The notes under the pieces are model-generated. The model did no database searches, was not told where the DNA came from, and worked only from the letters and a program-made list of their open reading frames with translations. From positions 1 through 32,000 of the forward strand of contig DBFJJM010000046.1 in the NCBI GenBank assembly GCA_048393175.1: DNA of 32,000 nt, given 5' to 3'. The first letter of the stretch is position 1, and each line of letters starts with the position of its first letter. Shown here piece after piece: positions 10,120-20,100 of this stretch. Source of the DNA: Candidatus Merdicola sp. (lineage in GTDB: Bacteria > Bacillota > Clostridia > TANB77 > CAG-508). The position numbers and the translations under genes were made by a program.

Positions 10120-10150
10120 AAGACGTATGGTTTTCTTAAACATACGTCTT
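10120..10150 (-). terminator. rho-independent terminator ending the NRPS-HK-RR-DUF975 block (the hairpin also lies just 3' of tex)
   Basis: 10-bp stem AAGACGTATG / CATACGTCTT with an 11-nt loop. The A run on the + strand gives a U run for the minus-strand transcript. Confidence 0.7.
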
Positions 10151-10163
10151 AAAAATAAATAGG

Positions 10164-11063
10164 TTATTCTTCGTTATTTTCTCCATTATCATTCTGTTGT
10201 TTTTCTTCATCCTTTTCTTCTATAACAGATGGTTGAGAAGTCGTTTCGTCTTCATGTATTTCTTCTTGTGGGTCAGAAATTACTTCTGGTGAAGTTGTTT
10301 CACCAGTTTCTTGCTTGTTTTCTGAAGAAATTTTTCCTGCTCTATCATCATAGAAAAATAGGAAGGAAATTAGCATATATGGTAATAACCATAACATACC
10401 AATACCAAAGGTGAAACAAGTTAAAATGGCCCATCCAATAAAGGATAAAGATAAGAAGAAAAAGCTCCATCTATGTCCTATCATTAAACGTTCACTTTCT
10501 TCTACTACTTCTCTTGTTGTCATTTCCGGATGGTCATAAGAAAGATAAAAAGAAAGTACATATAAATAGCTCTTTGGGATAAGCCAAATAAGACAGGCAA
10601 GATAACCAATTGCACCAATAATTGCGAAAAATCCTCCTGCAAGCCCAACTGTCGTAGAACCTAAAAGAGCAGAAGTAGCACCAAAAGTAATACTAAATCC
10701 AACTAGCATGATAAATACTATGCATAACACAAGAGGAAGAAGTAATTTTAATAAAATATTTCCTACTACTGCCCAAGCACGACCAAAATTGGAAAAACCA
10801 ATTGTTAGAAAGTCTGTATATTGTACTTCTTCTGCTTGCTTTAGTTTCATGAAAGAAACAAATAATCCATAAGTAAGTGGAATTTCAATAACATATAGAC
10901 CAATGTTTGCGATGAATCCTAATAATGGAATAATAGATAAAATACCAGCAATAAAACCAATTCCGAACATAATTAAAGCATAAACTAATGTCATTAATGC
11001 TGCTTTACCCCATTTTCCTGTTAAATTATTACGAGCACTTTGCCTAATTTCGGCAGCAACCAT
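10164..11063 (-). CDS. DUF975-family integral membrane protein with an acidic C-terminal tail
   Basis: The N-terminus IRQSARNNLTGKWGKAALMTLVYALI is typical of DUF975, followed by multiple TM segments. The last ~50 aa are E/D/Q/T-rich low complexity. RBS AAAGGGGG. Confidence 0.75.
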   Translation of the reverse strand: MVAAEIRQSARNNLTGKWGKAALMTLVYALIMFGIGFIAGILSIIPLLGFIANIGLYVIEIPLTYGLFVSFMKLKQAEEVQYTDFLTIGFSNFGRAWAVVGNILLKLLLPLVLCIVFIMLVGFSITFGATSALLGSTTVGLAGGFFAIIGAIGYLACLIWLIPKSYLYVLSFYLSYDHPEMTTREVVEESERLMIGHRWSFFFLSLSFIGWAILTCFTFGIGMLWLLPYMLISFLFFYDDRAGKISSENKQETGETTSPEVISDPQEEIHEDETTSQPSVIEEKDEEKQQNDNGENNEE

Positions 11064-11105
11064 AAAAAAACCCCCTTTAATAATATATATTAAAATACAA
11101 TAAGA

Positions 11106-12155
11106 TTAATACTTATTTTGTATTTCTAATATCTTTTCATATTCATTGTTTAAAATATCTAAAAATAGCATAGCAATTTCTGGGTCAAACTGAGTCCCCA
11201 TATTTTTGGTGATTTCATCTTTTACTGTTTCGATTGGTAATGCATCACGATAAGTTCTTTTTGATGTCATAGCATCAAAACTATCTGCTACAGCCGTAAT
11301 TCTTGCTAAATAAGGAATACCTGTGCCACTTAATTTAGAAGGATACCCCTTTCCATCATATCTTTCATGATGATGTTTTACAATTGGCAAAATATCTGCA
11401 AAAATGCTGGCATTAGAAAGAATATGAACACCAATGGTAGGATGATTTTTAATTTGAGAATATTCATCATCAGAAAGTTTTGCTTCTTTTAGTAAAATAC
11501 TGTCTGGTACGCCAATTTTTCCAATATCATGAAATAAACCGCCAATTCGTAACGTATGAATTTCTTCTTTTGTTAACCCTAACTTTTCACCAATTAGAAC
11601 CGCAAAAGCGGAAACACGGTCAGAATGACCTTTCGTATAAGGGTCTTTGGCCTCTACCGTATAACGTAGTGTTTCGATACTTTCCATATAGGCTTTTTCT
11701 AACTTTTCGTATGTATCCGATAATTCGGTATTAATATTTTTTATTGTGTTCATTTGCTCGATTGATTTAATTCCTGACTCAATTAATAATAATAATTGGT
11801 CAAATTTATCACTTTTCTCGCAATATCCTTGAATATCTAATCTACGAATAGTTTCTAATGGTGGAGCTAAATCTTTATGTCCAGTTAGCAACAAAATATA
11901 TAAATCTTTATTAAATTTTCGAATTTCTTCTACTACTTGGTCACCATGAATAGGATACATGATAAAGTCTAACACCATAAGGTCAAAATGCTCTGTTTTT
12001 ACTTTTTCGATTGCATCTAAAGGATTTGTTACACCGGTAAAGTTATAACCAGAACGTTTTAAAAAAATAGATAAAGAATCTACAATTCCCATCTCATCAT
12101 CGACAGCAATTATTTTATAACCAGAAGATTCTTTTGTTTGCATATTTTTTCTCAT
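11106..12155 (-). CDS. response regulator with REC domain fused to an HD-GYP domain (c-di-GMP phosphodiesterase type)
   Basis: REC region IIAVDDEMGIVD...DLMVLDFIMP-like...LLTGH. HD-GYP motifs HSDRV, GGLFHDIGK and HHERYDGKGYP. No DNA-binding domain. RBS GAGGTGA. Confidence 0.9.
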   Translation of the reverse strand: MRKNMQTKESSGYKIIAVDDEMGIVDSLSIFLKRSGYNFTGVTNPLDAIEKVKTEHFDLMVLDFIMYPIHGDQVVEEIRKFNKDLYILLLTGHKDLAPPLETIRRLDIQGYCEKSDKFDQLLLLIESGIKSIEQMNTIKNINTELSDTYEKLEKAYMESIETLRYTVEAKDPYTKGHSDRVSAFAVLIGEKLGLTKEEIHTLRIGGLFHDIGKIGVPDSILLKEAKLSDDEYSQIKNHPTIGVHILSNASIFADILPIVKHHHERYDGKGYPSKLSGTGIPYLARITAVADSFDAMTSKRTYRDALPIETVKDEITKNMGTQFDPEIAMLFLDILNNEYEKILEIQNKY

Positions 12156-12182
12156 GATATCACCTCTATTTTAGATACCTAT

Positions 12183-12211
12183 ATTATATATAACTAAGTA
12201 TGGAAAAGCAA
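12183..12211 (-). promoter_or_regulatory. sigma-A type promoter for the response-regulator gene
   Basis: On the minus strand: TTGCTT (12211-12206), 17-nt spacer, consensus TATAAT (12188-12183), about 28 nt upstream of the RR start. Confidence 0.4.
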
Positions 12212-12241
12212 GAAAAAAGAAAGATTTTGTAGAGAAAAGAA

Positions 12242-12278
12242 GATATTTACGGGTAGATTGAATCTATCCGTAAATATC
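12242..12278 (-). terminator. strong hairpin (terminator/attenuator-like) between the HK and RR genes
   Basis: 17-bp inverted repeat GATATTTACGGGTAGAT / ATCTATCCGTAAATATC with a 3-nt loop. It has one G-T/C-A imperfection. It starts 12 nt after the HK stop and is followed on the minus strand by CTTCTTTTCTCT. Confidence 0.45.
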
Positions 12279-12289
12279 CGTGAAAAATA

Positions 12290-14101
12290 TTAATCTAAAG
12301 GTAAAGTAATATTAAAACATGTACCTTTTCCTACTTCAGAGGTAAAATCAATGTTACCTCCAAAATGTGCTTTAATGGTAGAATAAGACATAAATAGACC
12401 AAGACCAGTTCCGTTTTTACCTTTTGTTGTAATCATTTCCTTAAACAATTTATGTTTTACTTCTTCTGTCATTCCTATACCGTAATCACGAATAGAGATA
12501 ATGATACTATTTGGAGTAGAAGAAATAACACTTAAATCAATATCTTGATTTGATTTACCATTATAGGATTGAATGGAGTTAGAAATCATATTATTGACTA
12601 CTTGTACTAAGCTGTTAACATCTCCTTTTATAGTGGTATTAGAATTGATTTCGATATGGATATTTAAGTTAATAAGGGCATTTTTCAGTTCATGTTTCAT
12701 CAAAATATCAATACGTTTCATTAATTCATCAATGGTAAATTCCATATTTTCATCAGAAGAAAGAGTAACCGCTTGTCCCTTAACAGCAGTAATAACATCT
12801 GACATGTATTCAGTATAGTCTTTTATTTTAACTACCCAAGAAGACATATCTTTGGCAATATCATGATGGTCTTTTTTCGTTACTTCAGGGTCATCGATAG
12901 AAATATCATATTCTTTTATTAAATCATTTAATCCCTCTGCAGCACCAGAAATGGACATAATTGGTGTTTTTAAGTTATGTGCGATTCCCCCTATTAATTG
13001 TCCTAAAGAAGCCAAACGTTCTTTTTCCATTAACATATCTTGATTATTCTTAATTGTTTGAATATCTAGCATATGTTGGGTGGTATCTTTAAATAAAATC
13101 AAAGTACCAATAAATTCATTGTCTGCGGTTAAATTATTAATCTCAATAATAAAATATTTACTAATATTTTGAACTTTTTGATTATATTGAAATGTTTTTG
13201 TAGAGTTTTTTACTTTTGTTAAAATATCTTGAAGAGTTTTTGTATCGACTTCAAACAAACTATTTTCTTGTAAAACTTTTGATAATTCTAAATTACGAAT
13301 CTTAGAGCCGGATAAATGAAACGTATTTAGAAAAGTTTGATTAAAATCAATAATCACATTTTCGTCATTTAATACAATATAGCCATCTGAAATACGGTCT
13401 ACAATTTTTTGCAAAGCAATAGGAGTAATAGTTAAAAATTTAAATTTAAAAATAGCAAGGACAAAAAAAAGCAAAGTAAAGGTAAAAGAAATTGGCATTA
13501 AATATACCACCATAGGAATACCGAATAAACCAAGAATGTTTACCAAAATGGGTAGTAACATTCCAATGACAATAAGCAAAGATTGCTTAGAAAAAAATCC
13601 GGAATTTTTAATAGAGTAACGTAATAAGTAAAAAAATCCCAATGCTATAATGACATAGGTATAAATAGAATGAATTGGAAAATATGGTCCAAAAATAGTA
13701 TCTGTAATGTGAATAGAATACTGTTCATAAAATAGATGATGGTAATCATTGGTAAAAAGTAGGATAATATCTAAAATAGGAATGATAAAAAATAATAGAT
13801 GATACCAATGAAAGGATACTTTTGTTTTATCGAAAATGTATCCAATAGCACAAAAGGCAAGAGGAGCAAAACAGGCACCAAAGGCGGCATAATATTCAAA
13901 ACGAATGGGAAGAATATTGCTGTTTTGGAAAGTAATTTGCAAAATTAAGCAAAACGTCCAGATAAACATAAAAGAAAGTAATGCAATAAACGCTTTTTGA
14001 ATTTGTCCTTTATGTTTTTTTGAATATAAAATAACAAGTAATAGAACAATAGTAATAATTTCAGAAAAAATCATAGCAATTAAGTAAGATAAATTTTCCA
14101 T
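12290..14101 (-). CDS. sensor histidine kinase with N-terminal 7-TM receptor module, PAS-like domain, HisKA and HATPase_c
   Basis: About 7 predicted TM helices in aa 1-230. H-box GGIAHNLKTPI. ATPase motifs NNMISNSIQS (N box), RDYGIGM (G1) and GTGLGL (G2). RBS AAGGAGGG. The start lies only 14 nt after the NRPS stop. Confidence 0.9.
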   Translation of the reverse strand: MENLSYLIAMIFSEIITIVLLLVILYSKKHKGQIQKAFIALLSFMFIWTFCLILQITFQNSNILPIRFEYYAAFGACFAPLAFCAIGYIFDKTKVSFHWYHLLFFIIPILDIILLFTNDYHHLFYEQYSIHITDTIFGPYFPIHSIYTYVIIALGFFYLLRYSIKNSGFFSKQSLLIVIGMLLPILVNILGLFGIPMVVYLMPISFTFTLLFFVLAIFKFKFLTITPIALQKIVDRISDGYIVLNDENVIIDFNQTFLNTFHLSGSKIRNLELSKVLQENSLFEVDTKTLQDILTKVKNSTKTFQYNQKVQNISKYFIIEINNLTADNEFIGTLILFKDTTQHMLDIQTIKNNQDMLMEKERLASLGQLIGGIAHNLKTPIMSISGAAEGLNDLIKEYDISIDDPEVTKKDHHDIAKDMSSWVVKIKDYTEYMSDVITAVKGQAVTLSSDENMEFTIDELMKRIDILMKHELKNALINLNIHIEINSNTTIKGDVNSLVQVVNNMISNSIQSYNGKSNQDIDLSVISSTPNSIIISIRDYGIGMTEEVKHKLFKEMITTKGKNGTGLGLFMSYSTIKAHFGGNIDFTSEVGKGTCFNITLPLD

Positions 14102-14115
14102 AAAAATGCCCTCCT

Positions 14116-17100
14116 TTAAATTAAGTTAATTTTTCTTAAATAGTCTACATAATGCTTAATATAGTTTTTATCAATTTGTGGCCAATGAAAACCAAAATGG
14201 TGTAATACAGCACGGCTAAATTCGGATACAATTGAAATATTGGAGCTATAGTCTACCTTCTGCTGTTTATCGAAGTCGTTAATAATGCCGGAAAGCAGTA
14301 TCTTTTTCTCTGGTAAAGAAGAAATTTGCTGTATTTTATGTGAAAAAGATTCATGACTTAAAGGCTGGATGGAAAAGCCCTCTTCGTCCAATTGATGTAT
14401 CAAATTTTTAATCATTACATGATTATTATCATAAAGATGAAAAACAGAGAAATCTTTATAATCATTTTGCATAATAGTAACAATAGCTTGTGCACAAGCA
14501 TCAACAGGTGTAAATTCCACATAAGAAGAGAGTAAATAGTCTGGTATAGAGCCAATTTGAATAAAGGCAAGTAAACGATTAACAAACGCATTTTCTGTTG
14601 CATTTAATTGAAAGACGCCATCATAATAACGACTGGTAATATTACCTAGACGTAAGATTTGAGCATCTAGATTGTTTTTTACTTGGTTTTCTAAAATTAA
14701 TTTTTCAGCATCAAATTTACTTTTTATATACACGTTTTCTAATACTTGACCAATATATAAATTCTTTTCACAAAAATTCATTTTCTTTAAAATAGCATTC
14801 TGTCTTGTTTTAGCATCTCCATCTAAAGACATATTTCCTGAAATGCTAAGAGAAGATAAGTGAAGAAGGCGTTTTTTATTTTGCAAACAAAAATGAATCA
14901 TATTTTTGGTGGCATCTACATTAATTGCTGTAAATTTATCAATATCCCCATAATGTTTTACCATGGCGGCAGCATTTATTACAACCGAAATTTGTTCTTT
15001 TAATTGAGATAAGACTAAATGAGATAAATCAAAATTTTCTTTGGTCACTTCTCCTTCTAAAATTTTAATACGTTTTCCCACTTCTGAATCAAAATGAGTC
15101 CCAAAATAGAAATGTAATACCCTCATAAAACGGTCATATGCAGAAATCCCATTTTTAGAACGAACAACACAAAAGATAGTTCCCCTATCGTGTATTAAAA
15201 GACTAGCTAGAATATGAACTCCTACAAAACCATTAGCACCTAGTAATAAGACATGATTATTGGTATTTGTTAATAAGTTAGATTTTTGGAAAAATGAAAT
15301 ATCATTTTTTTCTAATTGTTTGTTAATTTTACAATAATCATAAGTATCAATTAGGTTTGTTTTTTCTTTTTCTTTATTCTCTTCGTAATAAGAAGAAAGT
15401 TCTTTTATCGTTTTATATCGGAAAAAGTCAGCATAATCGATGTTAATATTGTGAGAAAGTAATTCTATTTTGTATTTAATAATCAGCAAAGAATCTACTC
15501 CTAAATCAAAGATATTGTCTTGGATTCCTACTTTAGTATGAAGTAATTTTTCCCAACAATCACAAAGTATTTTTTCAATAGCTGTAGTAGGTGCTATGTA
15601 GTCAGAAGAATTCTTCTGGATAGAATAGGTTGCTAAAATTTTTGTATCAATTTTTCCATTTAACGTAATAGGGAAATTATCTAGCTGTGTAAAATAATTA
15701 GGTATCATATATTCTGGAAGAGTAGTTAATAAAGAAGTACGTATCTGACTCGGCGTAATTGCTTTACGTATAGTGTAAAAAGCAGATAAATAGCTGTTAT
15801 TTTCTATTTTCTGATAAAGAACGACTGCTTTATCAATTTCGGGAAGATTCATTAATTGTTTTTCAATTTCAGACAGTTCAATACGAAGTCCGTGAATTTT
15901 AATTTGATTATCTTTTCTTCCTAAATAAGCAATTTCTGCACAAGGTAAATATTTTCCCCTATCACCAGTTCGATACATCGTACCTGTTCCGAAGGGATTG
16001 GGAACAAAAGCTTTTTTAGTAGCTTCTATATTTTTCAAATAACCTTTTGAAACGCCATCTCCTACAACACAGATTTCGCCTGGTATACCAATAGGGCATA
16101 AATTAAGGTCAGAGTTGCAAATCAATAATTCTGTGTTATAAATTGGTTTTCCAATGGTAATTTGGTCTTTTTTCATTACTTTTTTATTAGAACAACAAGC
16201 CGTGATTTCAGAAGGTCCATAGCCATTAAAAATAGTTGCTTTAGTAAAATGTTCTAATTTTTCATATAGAGAAGAGGTAAAGATTTCTCCTCCTAATTGA
16301 ATTATTTTTAAGTCAGATAGACTTTTTCGTGAAATTTCATTTAAAAGCATTAATTCAATTCTAGAAGGGGTTGTTAGTATAAAATCAATTTTTTGTTCTA
16401 ACAATAATTTTGCAATTTCAGTTGGTATTTTTTGCTGTTCCTGATTTGTTAGTACAAGTGTTTTTCCCGAAAGAAGCGGAACAAAAGTTTCAACAATAAA
16501 CATATCAAAAGAAACAGCACTAATACTAATAAACTTTTCGCAACAATCAGTATGAAGTTGCTTTTGATAACTAAGAATCATATTTAGAATACCTAAGTTT
16601 TTAAGCATAATTCCTTTTGGTTTTCCAGTTGAGCCAGAAGTGTAAATGACACAAAAAGTGTTGTCATTAGAAGGTAAAATAGATAAATCAAGACAAGAGT
16701 ATTTATCAAGAGGAATATCTTCTATAAAACTAATTTTCCAATCTATTTTCTTCATATGTTTATCTTGAATTAATAAAGCGGCATCGCTATCTTGTAACAT
16801 ATAAGTAATACGCTCTGGTGGTAAGTTTGGGTCAATTAATAAATAAGAAGCTCCTGTTTTTAAAATTCCTAGTATCGTGTAATAGATAGCAGGAGTACGA
16901 GATAGCATTACTGCAATGGTATCATTTTTACTAATAGAAAAGTTGTTTAATAAATAATTAGCAAATTGATTGGAGGTATTATTTAAATTTTCATAAGTAA
17001 TCGTTTGTCCTTCAAAGATAATAGCAGGTTTTGTTTTATTTTCCTTTGCCTTTTCATAAAAAGTACGAATCAGTGCTTTTTCTTTGTTATATTTTCTAAC

Positions 17101-20100
17101 TGTATTGTTATATTCATATAAAATAAAATCTTTTTCTGTTTCCGAAACAAGAGGAATATCTGCTATTCTAATTTGTATGTTTTCTAAAACTTGATGCAAA
17201 ATCTCACAAAAATGGTCTGCTAAACGAGTTATATCATTTTCATCAAATAACGAAGTAGCGTATTCAAATTGAATAGTAAGATGGTCTGTATATGGTTTTA
17301 CTTCTACTGTAAGGTCAAATTTAGAAATAGAAGATTCAGGTTCATAAAATAGGTCTGAGGGCATATTATTTTGATAAACAAACATCGTATCAAACAAGGC
17401 ATTTCTAGAAGCGGATGGTTTAATTTGTAAATCTTTTAAAAGTAAATCAAAAGGATAATCTTGATGGTCAAAAGCTTCTATATAATGAGCCGTGACTTGT
17501 TTTACGAAAGATAAAAAAGAATCATCACTAGAAAGTTGAGTTCGTAATACTAAAGTATTAACAAACATACCTATGGTTTTTTCTAGTTCTGGATGAGTAC
17601 GACCAGATGTTGGCGTGCCAACAAGGAAATCTTTTTGGTCTGTATAATGGTAAAGTAAAATATAATAAATGCATAGCAAAAAGGAAAAAGGAGTAGTATG
17701 ATACTGTTTACAAAAAGAAAGAATGTTATTTTTTTCTGCTTCTGAGATAATACGACTAATGTGTGCTCCTTTATAATCTTTTTTTTCTGGTCTAGAAAAA
17801 GTAGTTGGTAGGGTAAGCAAAGGAAGTTCACCAGCCAACAGTTCTAACCAATACTCTTTGTCTTGCTGTACCTTAGTAGAGTGTAGCTGTTTTTCTTCCC
17901 ATATAGCAAAATCTTTATATTGTAAAGAATAAGAGGAAAGAGTTTTTCCGTTATACAATTCAAACAGTTCTTCTACAAGAATAGACACAGAGACCCCATC
18001 GCAAATAATATGGTGTAAATCAAGTAGTAAAATAGCCTTTTTATTTTCTATCCTAACTAATAAAGCTCTAAAAAGCGGAGCTTTACTTAAATTAAAAGGT
18101 TTAACAAAAGACTTAAATGTAGAATCTATCTGCTTTTCTTCAATACAAACTGTTTCTAATTTGTAATCAAAAGAAGGGGAAATCTTTTGAACCACTTCTT
18201 CTTTTTGAAAAATAAAAGAAGTACGAAGAGAATCGTGGCGTTTTATTAACTTGTTTAATGCTTGTTCTAATCTTACTTTATCAGGAATGGTTTCGAACAA
18301 AATCCCGCCAGGTATGTTATAAACAGTAGAAGCCGGATTCGTCATACAAGTTAAAAAAATTCGTTTTTGAGCGTGAGACAAAGGATAAGAATCGAATATA
18401 GGAGCAGGGGTAATGACTGTTTTTTCACTTTCTTGTTTGTCTGGTTTTATCTCTTGAATATATTGAGCTAGTGATTTTATGGTTGTATATTCAAAGATTT
18501 CTTTTACTTGTAATTTCACATCAAAGTGACTATAAATAGCAGTAATTAATTTAATCGCACAAAGAGAATCCCCACCTAATTCAAAGAAATCACTATTTCT
18601 TCCTATTTCACCAAAGTTTAAAATATTTTTCCAGATAGAAACAAGTTGTTTTTCGGTTTCTGTTTGTGGTTTTTCTTTTTGATAAGTAATGATGACTTCA
18701 GGCAATTTGGATTTGTCAACTTTTCCATTTGCATTAAGAGGTAGAGTTTCCATTTTAACAAAATGAGAAGGAACCATGTAATAAGGTAATTTTTTTCGTA
18801 ATTCTCTTTTTATATCTTCTATCTTTAAATTTGGGTCACATGTTAGATAAGCACAAATACTATCAATTTGATTTACTGACTTAATGATAACAGATGCATT
18901 ACCAATAGAGGAAAGATTTTTCAAGACAGATTCGATTTCCTCTAATTCGATACGAAGACCTCTTAATTTAACTTGGTAATCATGGCGTCCAACAAATTCA
19001 ATTTCTCCCTTTTTATCAAAGCGAGCTAAATCGCCAGACAAATATAACTCTCCTTTACCAAAAGGATTTGGAATAAAGGATGTTTGCGTTGCTTTTTCGT
19101 TATAAAGATATCCGTCTGAAACGCCTTCTCCTGCAATACACAATTGTCCTGTTACGCCAACAGGACATAAATTCATATCTTGATTACAGATATAAATTTG
19201 TACATTAGGATACGGTTTTCCAATAGAAATATGTTCAGAAGAAACAATTTCCTTTGTAGAACAGCAAGCTGTTGTTTCAGAGGGACCATATCCATTAAAA
19301 ATGTGGGCATTAGTATAGGTTTTTACTTTTTCAAAAAAAGAACATGTTAAACTTTCTCCTCCTAATTGCATTGCTTTTAAATAAGTTAAACATGTGTTAG
19401 TGGTAGAAGAAGAAAGTAAAGCCTCTAGTTTAGAAGGAGTAATTAGCATGAATTCTGGCTTTTGTCTTCTAATTAATTGACTAAGGTCAATTGGATTTTT
19501 TTGTTCTTCTTCATTTGCTAGTACTAACTTTTTTCCAGATAAAAGGCAAATCCAAATCTCAGCTGCAAACATATCAAAAGAAACGGCACAAATACTAAGA
19601 AATGTTTTATATTTTTTTATATTCATCATAGATTGATAGCCATTTACTAGATTTAACATACTAGAGCGTTTTAATAAAATTCCTTTTGGTTTTCCGGTTG
19701 AACCAGAAGTATAGACAACAGACAAATTTCTTTGATTTGAAATAAAACTAGTAATTGGCTTGGATGATAAAGAGGATATTTCTAATTTATTTAAAGATAC
19801 TTGAGGGATAGAAAAAGTCAAATGAGAAAAACAAGTGTTAGTAAGCAGCAAATTAGTATGGCTATTTTCTATCATATATTGGAGTCTTTCTTCTGGTAAA
19901 GAAGCATCCATTATCATATAACTACAACCTGCTTTTAAGATTGCTATCATAGAAAACACAATCTCAGGAGAACGTTTTAATAAAATACCAACCACCTGAT
20001 TTGGCCTGGTAAAAGTAGTAATATGGTTTGCAAGACAATTTGTATAATAATCAATTTCTTCATAACTATAATTTCTGTTTTCAAAAACAAGAGCTGCTTT

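Follow-up and report, generated by a model that had tools for sequence, protein, structure and literature searches.

A hypervariable cassette joining a nonribosomal peptide synthetase to the sensor half of a histidine kinase in gut Clostridia, with a possible role in product sensing

We analyzed a 32,000-nucleotide (nt) stretch of DNA from the clostridial bacterium Candidatus Merdicola sp. (assembly GCA_048393175.1; contig DBFJJM010000046.1, positions 1 to 32,000), hereafter the window, in which a gene for a nonribosomal peptide synthetase (NRPS) is followed by genes for a sensor histidine kinase, a response regulator, and a DUF975 membrane protein. All four open reading frames (ORFs) lie on the minus strand, as described in an earlier account made without database searches (here, the sequence-only reading), which took them for a possible cotranscribed module that would sense the NRPS product and convert it into a change in cyclic di-GMP (c-di-GMP). 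By comparing the locus with its relatives, we found that the NRPS and residues 1 to about 330 of the kinase form a single hypervariable, co-inherited cassette. The proposal that the kinase senses the NRPS product thereby gains support, in that diversification and exchange of the NRPS extend to the sensor half of the kinase but not to the kinase core or to the regulator.

Gene content and domain architecture

The NRPS is composed of condensation (C), adenylation (A), carrier (T), and reductase (R) domains, and the kinase is composed of a seven-transmembrane (7TM) sensor, a PAS domain, and a transmitter comprising the dimerization and histidine phosphotransfer (DHp) and catalytic (CA) regions. 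The features are as follows:

14116-21507, minus strand: NRPS, 2,463 amino acids (aa), domain order C-A-T-C-A-T-R (Pfam Condensation twice, AMP-binding twice, PP-binding twice, NAD_binding_4)
approximately 20188-21507, minus strand: NRPS domain C1
approximately 18688-20142, minus strand: NRPS domain A1
approximately 18457-18648, minus strand: NRPS domain T1
approximately 17122-18393, minus strand: NRPS domain C2
approximately 15628-17058, minus strand: NRPS domain A2
about 15373-15585, minus strand: NRPS domain T2
approximately 14119-15252, minus strand: NRPS domain R
14102-14115, minus strand: NRPS-kinase junction, 14 nt, AGGAGGGCATTTTT
12290-14101, minus strand: sensor histidine kinase, 603 aa (Pfam, AlphaFold, Foldseek, and motifs)
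13436-14101, minus strand: kinase 7TM sensor, residues 1 to 222
13673-13732, minus strand: TM4-TM5 loop of the kinase, residues 124 to 143, predicted to be extracellular, directly past the motif TNDYHH
13082-13414, minus strand: kinase PAS domain, residues 230 to 340
12293-13066, minus strand: kinase DHp and catalytic core, residues 346 to 603, with the phosphoacceptor His375 in IAHNLKTP

By its Pfam domains and motifs, the NRPS belongs to the bimodular, reductase-terminated type (the dipeptide aldehyde class). Its catalytic motifs are intact: HHIISD and HHIICD in the two C domains, the carrier serines in GGDS and GVDS, and GANGFVG and YIKSK in the reductase. The top NCBIfam match is AusA (NF047350; 1,437 bits), covering only residues 993 to 2459; we rejected an AusA equivalog identity because the score falls below the cutoff of 2,500 and the protein has an additional N-terminal C domain. 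The best PDB matches of this domain, C1, are ordinary elongation C domains (TycC and Txo), and starter C domains (7c1h, 8f7f, and 4jn3) score lower; its N-terminal position and an adjoining gene for a FadD-like ligase (see below) are only suggestive of a starter function.

The 7TM-plus-PAS makeup that had been assigned to the kinase was corroborated by three types of evidence. HisKA_7TM (PF16927) was recovered with an E value of 7e-35 (121.3 bits against a cutoff of 28.6); an AlphaFold model of residues 1 to 345 (pLDDT, 85.5) displays seven transmembrane helices, a short structured TM4-TM5 loop, and a PAS fold; and Foldseek aligned residues 240 to 340 with many solved PAS domains at target-normalized TM-scores of 0.6 to 0.74. 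At the sequence level the PAS match is weak (20.0 bits against a cutoff of 21.8), and homologs carry precomputed PAS families. Foldseek searches against the PDB recovered no solved structural relative of the 7TM part. Pfam also reports HATPase_c, with HisKA slightly under its cutoff, and neither a receiver nor a histidine phosphotransfer (HPt) domain. The H, N, G1, and G2 boxes are intact (IAHNLKTP, NNMISNS, DYGIGM, and GTGLGL), and the PDB matches include kinases.

Conservation of the NRPS-kinase junction

Relatives were collected by using the kinase as the anchor and comprise 80 loci from 80 GTDB species representatives and 80 loci from further metagenome contigs, the latter not being independent species samples. 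They derive from uncultured Clostridia and from Clostridium sp. CAG:273, CAG:389, and CAG:780 of the human, mouse, rabbit, and goat gut and represent about 100 or more species-level lineages. Individual loci are referred to by L numbers.

In the window, 14 nt separate the NRPS stop codon (TAA, 14118-14116), with which the kinase ribosome-binding site overlaps, from the kinase start codon (ATG, 14101-14099), as first described; translational coupling of the two genes is probable. Among the relatives, an NRPS ends directly upstream of the kinase in 149 of the 150 evaluable loci (76/76 and 73/74 in the two sets, counting those with sufficient upstream sequence), so that occurrence of the two-component system without the NRPS is not the rule. 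Of 148 loci, 119 have either a gap of at most 23 nt or an overlap between the genes, and the median is about 10 to 12 nt. This adjacency is kept even though the NRPSs of the relatives are merely 33 to 47% identical to that of the window. The wider neighborhood, encompassing an HtrA-like protease, Tex, ABCF, and CorA, is syntenic too, and gene order is therefore weaker evidence than the retained stop/start coupling. Long gaps between the NRPS and the kinase (54 to 372 nt; L005, L023, L046, L062, L064, L070, L073, and L076) usually hold a long inverted repeat, possibly an attenuator or partial terminator that uncouples kinase expression from that of the NRPS.

Diversity and co-variation of the cassette

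Diversity statistics were computed on 74 nonredundant loci as mean pairwise protein distances, with partial Mantel tests of 2,000 permutations. The specificity-determining residues of the A-domain pockets were taken from the alignment at positions placed by the GrsA numbering. The 74 loci display 51 combinations of A1 and A2 codes, several of which fit the classical Pro, Val, Gly, and Thr types. The same code (e.g., DVWYLGGICK, DAFWLGGTFK, or DIFQTAGVFK) belongs to module 1 in some species and to module 2 in others, and pairs of close species differ in that one A-T(-C) unit has been cleanly replaced; these replacements are instances of natural NRPS module swapping.

The mean pairwise distances divide the locus within the kinase gene:

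NRPS domains: 0.55-0.60
Kinase 7TM: 0.53
Kinase PAS: 0.54
Kinase core: 0.31
Response regulator: 0.24
Tex: 0.21
ABCF: 0.14

Distances between 7TM domains correlate with those between the NRPS R domains (0.72), the A2 domains (0.60), and the codes (0.57) but with those of their own kinase core at just 0.28. When the kinase core was controlled for, the partial Mantel correlation between 7TM and codes was still 0.55, and none of the 2,000 permutations reached this value. The genes of both flanks track the kinase core (r, 0.69 to 0.89), and the HtrA-like gene likewise follows the species tree and not the cassette. A scan along the kinase revealed co-variation of residues 1 to 90 with A2 and R, modest co-variation of residues 121 to 150 with A1, and co-variation of the PAS region with C1; past residue 360, it recovered co-variation with no part of the NRPS. 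The kinase is hypervariable up to about residue 330 and over that stretch tracks the NRPS; beyond residue 360 it tracks the species.

At matched divergence of the kinase core, sensors linked to the same codes are closer to each other than those linked to different codes (distances for same and different codes, 0.07 and 0.37, 0.24 and 0.51, 0.33 and 0.54, and 0.38 and 0.54). Likewise, at a background synonymous divergence (dS) of about 0.6 to 0.9, the nonsynonymous divergence (dN) of the sensor is 0.067 where the codes are unchanged as against 0.40 where a module has been swapped.

Alternative alleles within species and transfer between species

Three species, here designated X, Y, and Z, possess alternative alleles of the cassette between flanks that are 96 to 100% identical in DNA sequence. 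In species Z (L093, L094, L097, and L101; flanks, 96 to 100% DNA identity), there are three alleles with A1 codes of the Gly, Pro, and Thr types, and the divergent block (50 to 79% identity) takes in the sequence between the NRPS start and a point about 800 nt inside the kinase gene. In species Y (L153, L155, L158, L159, L161, and L162; flanks, 99 to 100% identity), L155 differs in two patches only, namely, the A1-T1 module (35 to 45% protein identity) and kinase residues 121 to 330, and the 4.3 kb separating the two patches remains 94 to 100% identical.

The two A1 alleles of species Y are also borne by species X (L075, L125, L129, L131, and L134; this species includes Clostridium sp. CAG:780). 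Between the two species the kinase cores are 66% identical, whereas the NRPS and kinase residues 1 to 120 are 86 to 100% identical. At the DNA level, the regulator and Tex genes are about 73 to 77% identical and the upstream flanks cannot be aligned, whereas the NRPS gene and the first 500 to 800 nt of the kinase gene are 81 to 100% identical, reaching 99 to 100% around the R domain and the kinase start. High identity in the cassette against low identity in the core indicates that the cassette moved between the species by recent transfer, with breakpoints at the NRPS start and inside the kinase gene.

In both X and Y, one A1 allele goes with the sequence YSININEGVPG in the loop that follows TNDYHH and the second allele goes with YSLYLSDC(E/K)VGPYM, making the TM4-TM5 loop a candidate determinant of ligand specificity. 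Two motifs are near-invariant within the hypervariable sensor: TNDYHH itself (13736-13753; residues 117 to 122), which opens the TM4-TM5 loop predicted to be extracellular, and NSGFFSKQ (13583-13606; residues 166 to 173), in the TM5-TM6 loop predicted to be cytoplasmic. The outward-facing pair of His residues beside the variable loop could matter for the binding of an aldehyde or a metal.

The response regulator, the kinase-regulator gap, and DUF975

The remaining features downstream of the kinase are as follows:

12231-12279, minus strand: hairpin and U-rich tract past the kinase stop codon (folding energy)
12156-12230, minus strand: region upstream of the regulator gene, with the hexamers TATAAT (12183-12188) and, 17 nt before it, TTGCTT; absent from the promoter-scan listing
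11106-12155, minus strand: response regulator, 349 aa, with a receiver (REC) domain (11784-12113; Asp63) and an HD-GYP domain (11175-11663) (Pfam Response_reg and HD_5/HD)
10164-11063, minus strand: DUF975 membrane protein (Pfam, E = 1e-34)
10120-10150, minus strand: terminator hairpin and U tract between the convergent DUF975 and Tex genes

Pfam and motif analysis upheld the description of the regulator as a REC-HD-GYP protein without a DNA-binding domain. It conforms in sequence to the RpfG type, with an intact REC domain and intact HD-GYP motifs (HDIGK and HHERYDGKGYP), and is 70 to 84% identical throughout the clade. Its NCBIfam score for the NosR family is 199, under the cutoff of 400. 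The best PDB relative of its HD-GYP domain is V-cGAP3 (5z7c), a 3'3'-cGAMP-specific phosphodiesterase; another is PmGH (4mcw), a c-di-GMP enzyme, and the metal ligands are aligned.

The sequence-only reading recognized a terminator only at 10120-10150. That hairpin and its U tract are real (dG, -11.8; z, -4.5), but a stronger hairpin (12242-12279) had been overlooked in the 134-nt gap between the kinase and regulator genes, where it is followed by a U-rich tract and then by TATAAT (region dG, -27.7; z, -4.2). The segment 12231-12279 is probably an intrinsic terminator that ends the NRPS-kinase unit, possibly a leaky one, as judged from its predicted folding. We surveyed the relatives for perfect stems of at least 10 bp with a T tail 3' of the kinase gene and found them in 46/138 distinct loci, as opposed to 2 to 4 in shuffled sequence. 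A looser criterion (stems of at least 6 bp) was dropped since it gave no gain (80/122 real and 67/122 shuffled), and a scan for consensus promoters and terminators was uninformative at the GC content of the window (30%) and missed both real hairpins. A promoter of its own for the regulator is possible on the weak evidence of the TATAAT and TTGCTT hexamers, with indirect support from the inversion or separation of the regulator in 36/144 loci.

The gap between kinase and regulator is never tight in the relatives (minimum, about 40 nt; typically, 120 to 300 nt). The regulator lies on the same strand within 700 nt of the kinase in 99 of 144 evaluable loci; unrelated genes intervene in 24, the regulator is inverted in 12, and there is none within at least 3 kb in 9. 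The gap is a hot spot of insertion (L011, L025, L026, L031, L041, L056, L068, L073, L076, L078, and L082). The inserted genes, mostly on the opposite strand, encode TraG/VirD4 coupling proteins, which are apparently remnants of conjugative elements, as well as a YhgA-type transposase, ABC exporters, an HAD hydrolase, an aminotransferase, and a BspA-type leucine-rich-repeat surface protein. Given the stronger hairpin in this gap and the loose, inverted, or interrupted arrangements, a single four-gene transcript is not supported.

Nor could DUF975 be retained as a component of the module: of 121 loci, only 16 (13%) have it directly behind the regulator, 29 have it at another position, and 76 lack it. 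In the window genome itself, it is probably cotranscribed with the regulator, from which it is separated by 42 nt without a hairpin. The picture that emerges from the gene neighborhoods is one in which the predicted conserved transcription unit is the NRPS-kinase pair, the regulator is its usual neighbor, and DUF975 is incidental.

Predicted product and nucleotide output

Aldehyde release is expected of reductase-terminated gut NRPSs, whose products are described as protease inhibitors or as sources of pyrazinones (PMC12327764). For the window enzyme, the predicted product is a dipeptide aldehyde, probably N-acylated. This expectation derives from the N-terminal C domain, the terminal reductase, and a FadD-like ligase, divergent from the NRPS, that is encoded in a subset of the loci. 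The pyrazinone considered earlier is doubtful, since by established NRPS logic an N-terminal C domain would imply an N-acylated product, which is unable to cyclize to such a ring. The ligase gene of the window is as follows:

21645-23393, plus strand: FadD-like acyl-CoA/AMP ligase

It is a possible supplier of the N-acyl starter. By tblastn, a ligase adjoins the NRPS in about 25 of the first 80 loci; elsewhere, the HtrA-like protease is the immediate neighbor, and thus the source of the N-acyl group may differ among lineages. The sequence of the ligase tracks the species and not the cassette. On the output side, c-di-GMP is a candidate nucleotide.

Apparent frameshifts in neighboring genes

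The Tex gene of the window falls into two ORFs that overlap (7951-9225 and 9161-10102, plus strand), apparently because of a single extra base near 9170 (gctCggtgct). In all relatives it is one ORF of about 727 aa, and the split is seen in both independent assemblies of the human-gut metagenome contig that the window matches. The HtrA-like protease gene is apparently frameshifted, with a trypsin ORF (23414-24298, plus strand) overlapping a PDZ ORF (24228-24590, plus strand), and is a single ORF of about 376 to 381 aa in the relatives; an ABC permease gene is apparently frameshifted as well (29457-29957 and 29872-30273, plus strand). Loci L001 and L002 differ by 1 nt in a homopolymer at the NRPS-kinase junction. 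Together, the split genes and this difference suggest insertion-deletion errors of sequencing and not pseudogenes.

Product sensing and its alternatives

We propose that the NRPS and the 7TM-PAS sensor half would act as a translationally coupled cassette plugged into a conserved transmitter, consisting of the kinase core and the neighboring REC-HD-GYP regulator. The NRPS would make a species- or strain-specific dipeptide aldehyde, probably N-acylated; the matching sensor would recognize it in or at the membrane; the kinase would alter the phosphorylation of the regulator; and the latter would alter the hydrolytic breakdown of a cyclic dinucleotide (c-di-GMP or 3'3'-cGAMP). Joint diversification of synthase and sensor would thereby create private, pherotype-like channels among related species sharing a gut. 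We assign a probability of roughly 0.5 to the central claim, that the 7TM-PAS sensor recognizes the product of its own NRPS and signals to the HD-GYP regulator. We infer the identity of the ligand, its direct binding, whether it acts between cells or on the producer only, phosphotransfer from kinase to regulator, and the nucleotide substrate. As expected of a pherotype system, the locus keeps synthase-receptor adjacency and stop/start coupling, which suggest coexpression; hypervariability extends over the synthase and the sensor half, the kinase core and the regulator are conserved, and single species have alternative alleles.

Several observations weigh against product sensing. Its support is comparative throughout. 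Co-variation falls roughly with distance from the 3' end of the NRPS gene, and linkage in a recombining island can explain much of it. In 18 of 63 same-code pairs, the sensors are 41 to 56% different, which suggests that sensor similarity follows the ancestry of the cassette more than the predicted specificity. A general rule that the TM4-TM5 loop follows A1 could not be sustained, since it holds in X and Y and is weak over the whole data set; an analogous rule for the PAS patch was discarded because L075 and L125 of species X share a PAS type and differ in A1. The dN/dS ratio does not exceed 1, and positive selection cannot be demonstrated because dS is saturated (0.6 to 1.8 even in the closest species pairs). 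Individual codes may be imperfect owing to the placement of positions by GrsA numbering, although whole-domain distances agree with them. As to the output, Rfam searches at gathering and E <= 1 thresholds recovered no c-di-GMP riboswitch or other element in the window, and a GG[DE]EF motif scan of 1.55 Mb of local neighborhoods (the first 82 loci and the window) recovered none. Direct transcriptional autoinduction is not apparent, given that the regulator is without a DNA-binding domain and the window without an Rfam element, although feedback by an indirect route is possible; nor is there evidence of a classical autoinduction loop, the regulator being probably transcribed separately and some loci having none within 10 kb.

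As a first alternative, the two genes may be linked and not coupled through a ligand. The NRPS, lying in a recombination-prone island, would then diversify on its own account, e.g., toward different protease targets, and the 5' half of the kinase gene would hitchhike; the kinase would sense an unrelated membrane or host cue, and cotranscription would merely set its expression. We consider this unlikely. It accommodates the peak of NRPS correlation at the nearest kinase residues and its drop with distance, the very different sensors possible among same-code pairs, and the shuffling of PAS patches independently of the A1 allele in species X, and membrane sensor domains in general evolve faster than catalytic cores. 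It fits poorly with the purifying selection on the sensor where the NRPS is unchanged (dN of 0.067 at a dS of about 0.6 to 0.9), with the 3' end of the variable block, which falls repeatedly and in independent events at the sensor/transmitter junction, and with the location of the genes on the 5' flank of the NRPS outside the variable block. Two further findings argue against it: in two species, a nonadjacent loop changes together with the A1 module although 4.3 kb of conserved DNA lies between them, and stop/start coupling is retained in about 80% of 148 loci.

Alternatively, sensing might be indirect: the aldehyde would inhibit an envelope protease of the producer or its neighbors, and the kinase would sense the envelope or proteostasis state, providing second-messenger feedback or self-protection. 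Terminal-reductase NRPSs do release protease-inhibiting peptide aldehydes (work of Schneider et al. and of the Fischbach laboratory, as cited in the review PMC12327764), an HtrA-like trypsin-PDZ gene lies just upstream on the opposite strand in many loci, and the output is enzymatic and not transcriptional. However, such a scheme gives the sensor no reason to diversify in step with the NRPS, and the HtrA-like gene tracks the species tree and not the cassette; we regard it as quite improbable. More of a long shot is a structural role, with the 7TM domain serving as a membrane dock for the NRPS or aiding release or export of its product; co-variation would then reflect a protein-protein or substrate-channel fit, chiefly to the R domain, and signaling would be secondary. 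The 7TM region does correlate best with the terminal R domain (r, 0.72), a dedicated exporter gene is not among the conserved neighbors of the NRPS, and the 7TM domain is without a solved structural relative. Nevertheless, R is the physically nearest segment, so linkage accounts for that correlation; Pfam and Foldseek detected no transporter-like family or fold; and the complete, conserved PAS-DHp-CA transmitter points to signaling.

Relation to known systems and implications

The sequence-only reading knew of no comparable layout, but precedents exist in the Rpf/diffusible signal factor (DSF) cluster (PMC6337780) and the Vfm cluster of Dickeya (PMC9306890), so that the proposed NRPS-sensor cassette is a variation on these and not of an unprecedented kind. 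In the Rpf/DSF system of Xanthomonas (RpfF, RpfB, RpfC, and RpfG), a synthase, a FadD-type ligase, a kinase, and a c-di-GMP-degrading REC-HD-GYP regulator are clustered (PMC6337780). Our locus resembles it in that genes for a small-molecule synthase, an acyl ligase of the FadD type, a sensor kinase, and a REC-HD-GYP regulator lie together. However, the Rpf signal is a fatty acid made by RpfF, an enoyl-CoA hydratase; RpfC, a hybrid kinase, has a sensor that is short and N-terminal; the hosts are Gram negative; and pherotype-like hypervariability is not described in PMC6337780. An identity with the Rpf/DSF cluster was rejected because the synthase here is an NRPS and the kinase is without a receiver or HPt domain. 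In Vfm, a quorum-sensing system, NRPS-type adenylating enzymes make the signal, polymorphism of the A-domain code defines communication groups, and sensing is by a two-component system (PMC9306890). NRPS-type signal enzymes, code polymorphism, and a co-varying membrane protein are common to both; Vfm differs in being a 26-gene, proteobacterial cluster with transcriptional output, whose co-varying protein is the ABC permease VfmG and not a kinase sensor.

In the pherotype quorum-sensing systems agr of Staphylococcus (PMC3673130) and comQXPA of Bacillus (PMC4008528), the synthase or signal and the N-terminal sensor vary, the kinase core and the response regulator are conserved, and alternative alleles occur in single species. 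As in these, the signal gene or genes adjoin a multipass membrane histidine kinase on one strand, and the hypervariable segment spans both. In contrast to their ribosomal peptides, the signal of the window would be a nonribosomal dipeptide (aldehyde); the sensor is of the HisKA_7TM-PAS type, and the regulator is an HD-GYP enzyme without a DNA-binding domain. With AusA/aureusimine, the pyrazinone/peptide-aldehyde family of gut Clostridia, and ruminopeptin of Ruminococcus bromii, the locus shares a bimodular NRPS with a terminal reductase in gut Firmicutes, and it differs in the subcutoff AusA score and the extra N-terminal C domain. In the literature searched, with the primary papers on dipeptide aldehydes outside our coverage, we found no account of an NRPS with a co-diversifying sensor kinase in gut Clostridia.

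We tentatively suggest, at somewhat less than even odds, that the dipeptide aldehydes of gut Clostridia, hitherto regarded as inhibitors of host proteases, are primarily strain- and species-specific autoinducers, made and read by exchangeable cassettes with cyclic dinucleotide hydrolysis as the readout, and constitute a widespread NRPS-based pherotype system. If the kinase does read the NRPS product, this would be a nonribosomal counterpart of the agr and com pherotypes, present in some 100 or more species of uncultured gut bacteria. Such a system would give a prominent class of gut NRPS clusters a physiological role, permit prediction of which strains communicate, and tie small-molecule signaling to cyclic dinucleotide control in Gram-positive anaerobes. 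The three alleles in one species and the loop swap in two provide natural allele sets for mapping the ligand specificity of HisKA_7TM. Even without direct sensing, the cassette clearly exemplifies the exchange of modules, with a breakpoint that falls on an intragenic domain boundary.

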